Source of the DNA: Escherichia coli
GTDB taxonomy: Bacteria > Pseudomonadota > Gammaproteobacteria > Enterobacterales > Enterobacteriaceae
Direction: 5' to 3' (one strand)
Assembly: GCF_003018115.1 (NCBI RefSeq)
Contig: NZ_CP027457.1
DNA: 64,000 nucleotides
Position numbers and translations under genes: made by a program. A model generated the notes under the pieces. It did no database searches. It saw nothing but the letters and a program-made list of their open reading frames with translations, and was not told where the DNA came from. Below are positions 14,054 through 16,102 of this stretch, one piece after another (position 1 is the first letter of the stretch; the number at the start of each line of letters is the position of its first letter).

Positions 14054-14299
14054 GTTACTATCCTTATCAACAAATATTAAAACCATAATAGATATTTCTT
14101 TATAGTTTTCATCTGATTCTGAGGCGATATGCCTGATAGTAACGTAAACCTGTCTGATGTTTATATCCCTTCTGTTTAGTTCAATTCCGTTATTTTGGGG
14201 CGTGGCATGAGTATCCATCGCCCCATAATATAACCCTTTGTTTTAAAATTACATAAAATCTATTTTTATTCAATGATTATAAAGTGCTAATAATCAATA

Positions 14300-15523
14300 T
14301 TATGGTATTATATTCTGATAATGATTTGATAAGCGAATTCTTTTACCAGATGGTATTTCTATTTCCACCCCATAATTTATATCTTTTTCATCAGGAAGTG
14401 GCCTCTTTAAATAAGGCGTGCGTGACATTTTTTTTGGGTTAAGCGTCTCGTATTGAAATACTTCGAATTGATATTCAGACATTTCTGCCCATGTTTGAAT
14501 TTTATTGTATCGGGAGAGTGTCGTAAAGGCTTTAACTTGCTTATAACATTGTTTTTGGAATTCTTGCTGATATTTTAATATGTCGTTGTATGAAAGATTG
14601 GTTATCCTGGCCTCTAAAAATTTAATTATTGTCGAAGCAATTTCCGCTTTTGCTCGTAAAAAGTTGTCATTAATGGTTAATAATGTTGAAAATAAACCTT
14701 CGATTTGTTTGTCAAGATATTGTTCGTCTTTATATAATTTTGGGGTAGGGTGTTCTTTATGTGAAAAAATAGTGTCACCTAAATTTGCGTCAGTGAAATT
14801 TATATTAAGTAGATCTTCGAAATAAAACCTTGACAAGGTTAGAACGAACCCGGACAGGTTCTGTCCTGTCATATTGAAATCAATAAAGTTGGTTCCGGCA
14901 AAGACTTTCATCCTGTTTTTATTTTCACTGTGCTCAATATATAACTTCGTCATTTTTTGATACAGGCTTTGAATATCTTTTATATTAGTCGGTAAGTCAG
15001 CTCGTTGTTCAGCAATAAAATTAGTATCTGAAAACATGGTTTGGACACTGAATCTTACTGGTATTCCCTCTTCTACGCTAATTTTAGTTATGATTGCCTT
15101 GTCGGGTTTAGGATTAGCGACAACAATGATTCGACATTCAGCACTTTTGTTCTTTTCGTATCTAATGTTATTAATTTGATTAAGTATTTCCTGTGCCTGC
15201 CGCGTAAGTGGTGTCGAACTTATCGATTCAATGTTAGTAATAAGACTTACAAGTTGAGCCACAACTTTTGAGTAGTCTGCATCTGTATATTTGGTGTTCA
15301 TGCGGCACGCATAAATTTGTGGGAGGTGTTGCCGCGCTAAATCAAATTGTTCAGGGTTGTATCCTTCTCCAGAGAATGTGGAATTAATGGGTTGTTGTTC
15401 TTCCCAATTATCACAAGGCCACTTCGGTGTGTCTGGCGTTTTAATATCGTCGGTATTTGTTGTGCGGTTATAAATATCACCGTGATATGTATTTATTATA
15501 ACTGGGGTAAAGTCAATTGACAT
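14300..15523 (-). CDS. yhiS: Uncharacterized protein YhiS, intact 407 aa form, with pentapeptide-repeat-like segment
   Basis: AT-rich ORF between slp and the ars region; in K-12 (from memory) yhiS is an IS5-disrupted pseudogene at this position. Confidence 0.6.
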
Positions 15524-16102
15524 AACATTCCTTATTCATCATCTGTTTATGCTAAGGTTTTTAAATTGGATAATTAGAACAGGAATGGATTTTCTTCTAC
15601 ACACAATAAATATAATGCGTCATATCTTCCTGATATAATTACCTTTAACTTCCCTTTCATTTCCACCCGGTAATATTTGTGTATAAAAAAAGGGCAGTGA
15701 TAGTATCGTAAAGGAAAACGTTAACAACTATCAAAAAGCGCTCATTTTAAAAAGTTATGATGTTCTCCGATAGTGTGTGAAATGATATTTTTGTGATGTT
15801 TTAGATGTGTAATAATGAACCAGATTAAAGTATATTTAAAAATGTGTTGTATTAGCGACTGAAATCTGCCCTTTAAAAGGAGGGATGGTACTGAGACAAA
15901 GAGACATTGCTTCTCCGATAAAATGTCAGAGAAGCATGATTACGTTGTTATTGTCTGTTGATGACTTACTGACCGGGCCGTCATCATTCTCAAGGCATTA
16001 GTTAAATCATTTGTGATTTTTAAGGATTATCCTATCTATGATTTTTTACTTAGAAGGATAAGACACTCACAATGCTCCTTATAGTTTACTGCTGGCAGCT
16101 AT

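Follow-up and report, generated by a model that had tools for sequence, protein, structure and literature searches.

Pentapeptide-repeat proteins of the PF00805 type, such as Rfr32 (PDB 2f3l and 2g0y), Rfr23 (2o6w), and MfpA (2bm5), are built from A(D/N)(L/F)xx units whose central hydrophobic residues stay in strict register. Proteins of the Qnr/MfpA type consist almost wholly of a beta-helix of some 8 turns or more and reach a DNA-like length as dimers. In the type III effectors PipB/PipB2, SopA, and NleL (EspX7), which are encoded by AT-rich accessory genes of enterobacteria, a pentapeptide beta-helix follows an unstructured N terminus; the beta-helix domain of NleL has been described (PMC3013003). 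A further group, metagenomic multi-module proteins with PF13599 (Pentapeptide_4) regions (P0148, P0160, P0168, P0171, and P0172), contains 4 to 11 matching stretches and little else. Here we examined the Escherichia gene yhiS, which is catalogued and uncharacterised, in a 64,000-nucleotide stretch of Escherichia coli DNA (contig NZ_CP027457.1, assembly GCF_003018115.1; "the window"). In K-12, yhiS is interrupted by the insertion sequence IS5 near nucleotides (nt) 742 to 746 of its coding sequence (CDS), and in O157:H7 a tract of seven A residues in place of eight gives a 371-amino-acid (aa) form with an altered tail, whereas the copy in the window is uninterrupted and encodes 407 aa.

The reading that we favour, with a probability of about 0.6, is that yhiS is a genuine, optional, and probably silenced Escherichia-specific accessory gene in whose product one short beta-helix module links two novel domains, serving either as a stiff connector or as a surface for binding. 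New relative to the existing record are the assignment of this single module, the measured spectrum of inactivating lesions, and a sharply bounded, mosaic hyper-diversity of the gene.

The open reading frame (ORF) runs without interruption from an ATG through 407 codons to a TAA stop. Judged by its sequence and position it is the yhiS orthologue: against the two K-12 DHB4 fragments it was 94.5% identical (nt 1 to 746) and 97.7% identical (nt 742 to 1224). The first-pass annotation had named the gene yhiS, had stated that IS5 splits it in K-12, and had described an intact, AT-rich ORF with flanks of about 250 and 580 bp; all of this was confirmed, the flanks measuring 246 and 579 bp and the coordinates and quoted peptides being correct. 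The G+C content was 0.337 for the block from 14054 to 16102 and 0.349 for the yhiS CDS (0.311 at third codon positions), compared with 0.499 for the window. Reading along the window, the gene order is dctR, slp, yhiS, an ArsP-type permease gene, an ArsR-like regulator gene, and the ars genes, with slp and dctR downstream of yhiS on the minus strand. The ars-yhiS-slp synteny, which marks the border of the acid fitness island, was common to all 27 E. coli loci that we fetched and to one further locus (L019). We found yhiS only in Escherichia/Shigella and always at one chromosomal site, between arsC and slp on the left edge of that island. Searches of plasmids and phages with tblastn found no yhiS on phages or true plasmids, and three "plasmid" matches were mislabelled chromosomes of 4.8 to 4.9 Mb.

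The pentapeptide signal in YhiS is, at the level of sequence, real but small, amounting to one module. Its ten units are A(N/D)(L/F)xx-like and lie between two linkers of the form xLY...K..(L/I)xG, with central residues F208, F213, M218, L223, L228, F233, L238, F243, L248, and F253; in 6 of the 10 units the residue just before the centre is N or D. The run of ten occurs at period 5, other periods gave runs of at most 3, and none of 20,000 shuffles exceeded 7. YhiS shares this strict hydrophobic register with the PF00805 proteins, but two residues ahead of the centre it often has a bulky or polar side chain (F, Q, E, or I) in place of a small one, and the window protein fell below the Pfam Pentapeptide threshold (11.6 bits, E value of 0.22; gathering threshold, 20.2). 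The best PF00805 score among ten YhiS alleles had an E value of 0.037, and the profile of the alleles matched the PDB repeat protein Rfr32 (2f3l) with an E value of 0.006. The earlier description of the centre as pentapeptide-like thus stands, on the strength of the ten in-register units, but "pentapeptide-repeat-like protein" overstates what is a subthreshold stretch of ∼85 of the 407 residues. The flanking domains, unlike those repeats, are unrelated to anything known.

When 1.84 billion representative proteins were searched exhaustively with the YhiS profile, non-Escherichia matches were confined to residues ∼200 to 290, and all nine of the nine that we scanned were pentapeptide-repeat proteins (PF00805 E values of 1e-36 to 1e-80). 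These metagenomic proteins (680 to 1190 aa) are made of a ∼70-residue unit comprising ten pentapeptides and a conserved QLYSTxSYxxKDLxG linker. YhiS residues 204 to 276 aligned with this repeating unit with an hhalign probability of 97% (E value of 8.5e-11, 73 columns), the unit alignment having been assembled from matches of the YhiS profile itself. Residues 193 to 277 correspond to one complete unit with a degenerate linker at each side, so that YhiS shares a full unit, linkers included, with the multi-module proteins; in those proteins the unit is repeated, whereas in YhiS a single copy sits between two orphan domains. Two of the long metagenomic pentapeptide-repeat proteins are encoded at 3001 to 5412 of contig L029 and at 3001 to 5049 of contig L030; an ArsP_1-family gene lies near the latter, probably by coincidence.

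Structure prediction gave a beta-helix for the module only once pentapeptide-repeat rows had joined the alignment. With ten YhiS alleles alone, AlphaFold2 returned a mean predicted local distance difference test score (pLDDT) of 42, with the repeats at 25 to 30 and no beta-helix. A second run with 35 nonredundant alleles and 18 repeat-protein segments raised the mean pLDDT to 55; residues 181 to 250 reached 70 to 81, with strand bridges every five residues, and the beta-helix itself was modelled at a pLDDT of about 70 to 80. In this model, built with repeat rows in the alignment, the repeats superposed on the solved beta-helix of MfpA (2bm5) at 1.2 Å over 50 columns. A Foldseek search of the model against the PDB returned nothing at an E value of ≤0.001, and the structural matches to SopA and NleL were weak.

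The remainder of YhiS is an orphan. Its N-terminal ∼200 and C-terminal ∼130 residues, together ∼80% of the protein, had no homologue among the 1.84 billion representative proteins or in the PDB profile search, and the predicted alpha/beta domain (codons 81 to 175) had none outside Escherichia in the former set. The helical C-terminal region was modelled at a pLDDT of about 55 to 66 in the second run. YhiS has neither a signal peptide nor a membrane segment. Taken with the module, the predictions suggest a soluble 407-aa protein in which a disordered, polar N terminus would be followed by an orphan alpha/beta domain, the repeat module, and an orphan helical bundle. Its repeat module may adopt a right-handed, four-sided beta-helix of about 2.5 turns with flanking helices as caps, and could hold the two orphan domains rigidly apart or offer a protein-binding face between them rather than mimic DNA. 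Against NCBIfam YhiS had no matches, and the PADLOC-DB anti-phage defence models gave 0 families at an E value of ≤1.

An intact yhiS is ordinary rather than special in E. coli. From a search ranking we took 30 evenly spaced matches, fetched 27 complete E. coli genomes, and inspected each yhiS sequence directly; like the complete RefSeq genomes from which it is drawn, this sample is biased toward clinical and laboratory strains. The 407-codon gene was intact in 11 of the 27 (about 40%) and disrupted in 16 (about 60%), a 28th match, from a K-12 laboratory strain, was listed with IS5 in yhiS, and large clusters of 407-aa YhiS proteins exist. The special interest that the first-pass annotation had attached to an intact copy is therefore not upheld. 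The commonest inactivating lesion, in 7 genomes, was a T6-to-T5 frameshift at CDS nt 755 to 760 that brings a stop at codon 282. The rest comprised the A8-to-A7 change of O157:H7 (1 genome), a +1 frameshift at nt 975 (1 genome), insertions of IS3, IS5, or IS1 (3 genomes), retention of the first 379 nt of yhiS alone (3 genomes), and loss of the entire gene next to an IS1 (1 genome). Because the T5 frameshift occurs on two different 5′ backgrounds with one common 3′ half, it must have had a single origin and then spread by recombination.

The three genomes that keep only the first 379 nt, those of strains A36, SC434, and 21AR0707 (L004, L027, and L028), share a recurrent deletion haplotype. In at least one of them, A36, arsB and arsR are also missing, and arsC is followed directly by dinQ.

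Annotation is an unreliable guide to the state of this gene. For instance, an intact 407-codon yhiS that is 98.9% identical to that of the window (L012, NZ_CP062811.1, 1547 to 2770) is flagged as "frameshifted" in RefSeq, and the 3′ yhiS fragment of K-12 (L001, 4355 to 4733) bears the same label in the absence of an indel. Since the coordinates of the flagged CDS are those of the 371-aa O157:H7 form, the reference protein was probably that form. Pseudogene counts for yhiS drawn from annotation alone would be inflated.

The intact alleles are highly diverse. Full-length YhiS proteins ranged from 95% down to 76% identity, that is, up to 24% difference within E. coli, and all of these were 407 aa long. 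One 410-aa allele at the same locus was 62% identical (38% difference); its contig flanks are only 92 to 96% identical to the window, which makes a cryptic Escherichia clade its probable source. The possibility that the ORF is itself a fusion or a pseudogene, raised in the first-pass annotation, did not hold, since every allele class has a full length of 407 to 410 aa. For nine intact yhiS alleles, and for slp and dctR from the same genomes, we compared nonsynonymous (dN) and synonymous (dS) divergence. Mean dN and dS were 0.067 and 0.171 for yhiS (ratio, ∼0.39; pairwise, 0.26 to 0.67), 0 and 0.028 for slp (no ratio), and 0.005 and 0.062 for dctR (ratio, ∼0.08), so that dN of yhiS was >10 times that of either neighbour. 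The ratio was about 0.4 in all regions of yhiS, and codons 1 to 40 had the lowest dN within the gene.

This diversity is sharply bounded and mosaic. When the window was compared with L003, the slp-yhiS spacer differed by 1.2% and the adjacent 903 nt of CDS by 17.6%, with the jump exactly at the stop codon; the first 321 nt of yhiS differed by 6.2%, and the proximal upstream region by 2.2%. The allele of L016 is a mosaic of the two, being identical to L003 over nt 330 to 920, within 0.7% of it over nt 1 to 330, and of the window type over nt 920 to 1224. Regionally raised mutation of AT-rich, H-NS-bound DNA was considered as a source of the diversity and rejected, because the equally AT-rich noncoding flanks differ by 1 to 2% compared with 17.6% for the CDS. 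Introgression of the L003-type block from an L019-type lineage was likewise rejected, because L003 and L019 differ by 17 to 23% in every block. In a simulation of 179 random substitutions, a mean of 6.8 stops was expected and the frame remained open in only 0.085% of runs. With its frame open despite 179 substitutions, yhiS has thus been maintained as coding DNA while its alleles diverged deeply, although constraint was weak and the gene was repeatedly lost. If the favoured reading is right, the gene is a clear example of a few hundred coding bases with 10 to 20 times the diversity of their immediate surroundings; it would then be a useful recombination marker and, at the acid fitness island border, a candidate target of niche-dependent selection.

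These population data bear most directly on whether yhiS is functional at all. The gene might be a functionless relic drifting toward loss, with the window copy simply not yet hit and with its diversity the product of relaxed constraint and recombination. That 16 of the 27 sampled genomes are disrupted by independent lesions fits this account, as do a frameshifted allele that lasted long enough to recombine onto two 5′ backgrounds, the excess of dN over slp and dctR, and a literature that reports no phenotype, induction, or protein detection. We nevertheless consider it unlikely, because dN/dS is about 0.4 and not about 1 throughout the gene, because the simulated neutral frame so rarely stays open, and because a length of 407 to 410 codons is kept even in the 62% identical allele. 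Further, noncoding AT-rich flanks that are far less diverged than the CDS are the opposite of what simple regional decay would leave. An optional accessory gene, as we favour, would instead be dispensable and repeatedly inactivated, yet under moderate purifying selection where intact, and would persist as several old, recombining allele classes. Such a pattern is usual in genes that interact with hosts, competitors, or parasites, and one could imagine YhiS as a conflict-type protein whose polymorphism is maintained by balancing or diversifying selection. In the most specific version of this idea, YhiS would be an unrecognised translocated effector or an interaction factor that uses its single beta-helix module to bind a protein of a host or competitor, and several ancient allele classes and nulls would persist because different niches favour different alleles. 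We regard this as a rather improbable extension.

The effector idea has a more concrete form, by analogy with PipB/PipB2, SopA, and NleL (EspX7): YhiS might be secreted or translocated, for example as a substrate of the type III system of the locus of enterocyte effacement or of the cryptic E. coli type III secretion system 2 (ETT2), with the disordered N terminus as signal and the beta-helix binding a host protein. The AT-rich accessory gene, the N terminus, the type of repeat, and the conflict-like population pattern all suit such a role. YhiS has, however, no detectable sequence relationship to these effectors (no Pfam or NCBIfam match beyond the subthreshold Pentapeptide, and no PDB sequence match to PipB2, SopA, or NleL at an E value of ≤10), its repeat region is much shorter, it has no HECT-like or LFNEF-type C-terminal element, and its gene lies outside a pathogenicity island. 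We hold the proposal to be doubtful. Far less probable still is that YhiS mimics DNA and, like proteins of the Qnr/MfpA/AlbG type, protects or inhibits DNA gyrase; DNA mimicry had been mentioned among the functions of pentapeptide-repeat proteins in the first-pass annotation. Beyond the shared repeat type and the local superposition of 50 residues on MfpA, nothing speaks for it. Ten pentapeptides make about 2.5 turns and about 12% of the protein, for which mimicry is implausible, and YhiS does not have a long beta-helix of DNA-like size and charge: its repeat core is not strongly negative, with 5 acidic and 2 basic residues, and Pfam, NCBIfam, and PDB profile searches gave no match to the Qnr/MfpA families at threshold. 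The size of the module excludes a DNA mimic in practice. If the connector reading is right, yhiS is more than a K-12 pseudogene: it would be a live, optional gene of E. coli whose structural module is recognisable and can guide experiments, although its practical importance is modest.

The regulatory part of the favoured reading draws on reports from K-12. The arsC/yhiS intergenic region of K-12 is listed as an H-NS-bound "promoter island" (PMC3661553), and another report counts yhiS among the sites that StpA/H-NS bind strongly (bioRxiv 10.64898/2026.02.10.705075). In K-12, YdeO binds in the slp-yhiS spacer, where it induces slp-dctR and leaves yhiS uninduced (PMC4222967). By analogy with these binding reports, the AT-rich yhiS locus of this strain is probably silenced by H-NS, and silent, under laboratory conditions. 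Published mentions of yhiS comprise IS5-mediated deletions in K-12 evolution experiments, the promoter-island and H-NS listings, and the negative YdeO result, with no functional study among them. A scan of the yhiS flanks for promoters and terminators found sites no more frequent than in shuffles, and a Rfam scan of 13900 to 16300 found no RNA family. The coordinates of the yhiS features and of the neighbouring elements are given in Table 1.

Table 1. Features of yhiS and neighbouring elements (window coordinates; codon numbers refer to yhiS)
Feature	Position	Strand	Remarks
yhiS CDS	14300..15523	-	DNA 95-99% identical to yhiS loci in many E. coli genomes
Shine-Dalgarno AAGGA	15529..15533	-	Read from sequence; 5 nt upstream of the ATG at 15521-15523
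AT-rich spacer, yhiS stop to slp start (slp promoter region)	14054..14299	.	246 bp, G+C 0.301
AT-rich region upstream of yhiS	15524..16102	.	579 bp, G+C 0.328; presumed promoter location
Polar N terminus, codons 1-60	15344..15523	-	Rich in T/I/D/P/N, 0 Leu, 0 Ala; predicted unstructured, pLDDT 24-40 in both models
Predicted alpha/beta domain, codons 81-175	14999..15283	-	2 helices and a 5-stranded sheet in both AlphaFold2 runs; pLDDT 66-80 in the second
Single pentapeptide-repeat module, codons 193-277	14693..14947	-	∼85 residues: linker, ten pentapeptides, linker
Ten in-register pentapeptides, codons 206-255	14759..14908	-	F/L/M at the centre of every unit
Predicted helical bundle, codons 267-360	14444..14725	-	Orphan sequence
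T6 tract, CDS nt 755-760	14764..14769	-	T6 (intact) in the window
A8 tract, CDS nt 1089-1096	14428..14435	-	A7 in O157:H7
Terminator-like hairpin downstream of the permease gene	15908..15936	-	Consensus match, count not above shuffles; would separate the permease transcript from yhiS
Mechanical slp ORF	13487..14218	-	243 aa
ArsP_1-family permease	16103..17116	-	Pfam E value 1.3e-52; TPFCSCS motif
ArsR/SmtB-type regulator	17148..17531	+	Divergent from the permease gene
Rfam AgrB match	19837..19918	-	79.5 bits
Rfam AgrB match	20069..20153	-	90.7 bits
IS200/IS605-type element	20312..22046		Between the dinQ/agrB region and gor
TnpB-like protein of this element	20312..21532	-	406 aa; OrfB_IS605 and Cas12f1-like TNB domain
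Y1 transposase of this element	21519..22046	+
shuA/chuA 5′ untranslated region thermoregulator (Rfam)	9652..9683	+	60.1 bits (threshold 58)
ORFs after the thermoregulator	9681..12740		660 aa and 342 aa

The neighbourhood of yhiS offered several further observations. The annotated Slp protein has 188 aa and starts at 14053 (Pfam Slp E value of 8.7e-42); the 55 codons 5′ of this start in the mechanical ORF are an in-frame extension outside the gene. Unlike YhiS, Slp is identical (WP_001057453.1) in 25 of the 27 fetched genomes. The permease and regulator genes, which lie between yhiS and arsRBC, form a pair with presence/absence polymorphism, being present in A8, M15, and c1-17 and absent in K-12, O157:H7, and others. 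Adjoining arsR, the two AgrB matches correspond to antisense RNAs of the dinQ toxin locus, and the IS200/IS605-type element beyond them is absent from this place in K-12. On the other side of yhiS, the two ORFs that follow the thermoregulator match chuA and chuS by size and position; their insertion beside dctR, within the acid fitness island, is shared with O157:H7 and A36.
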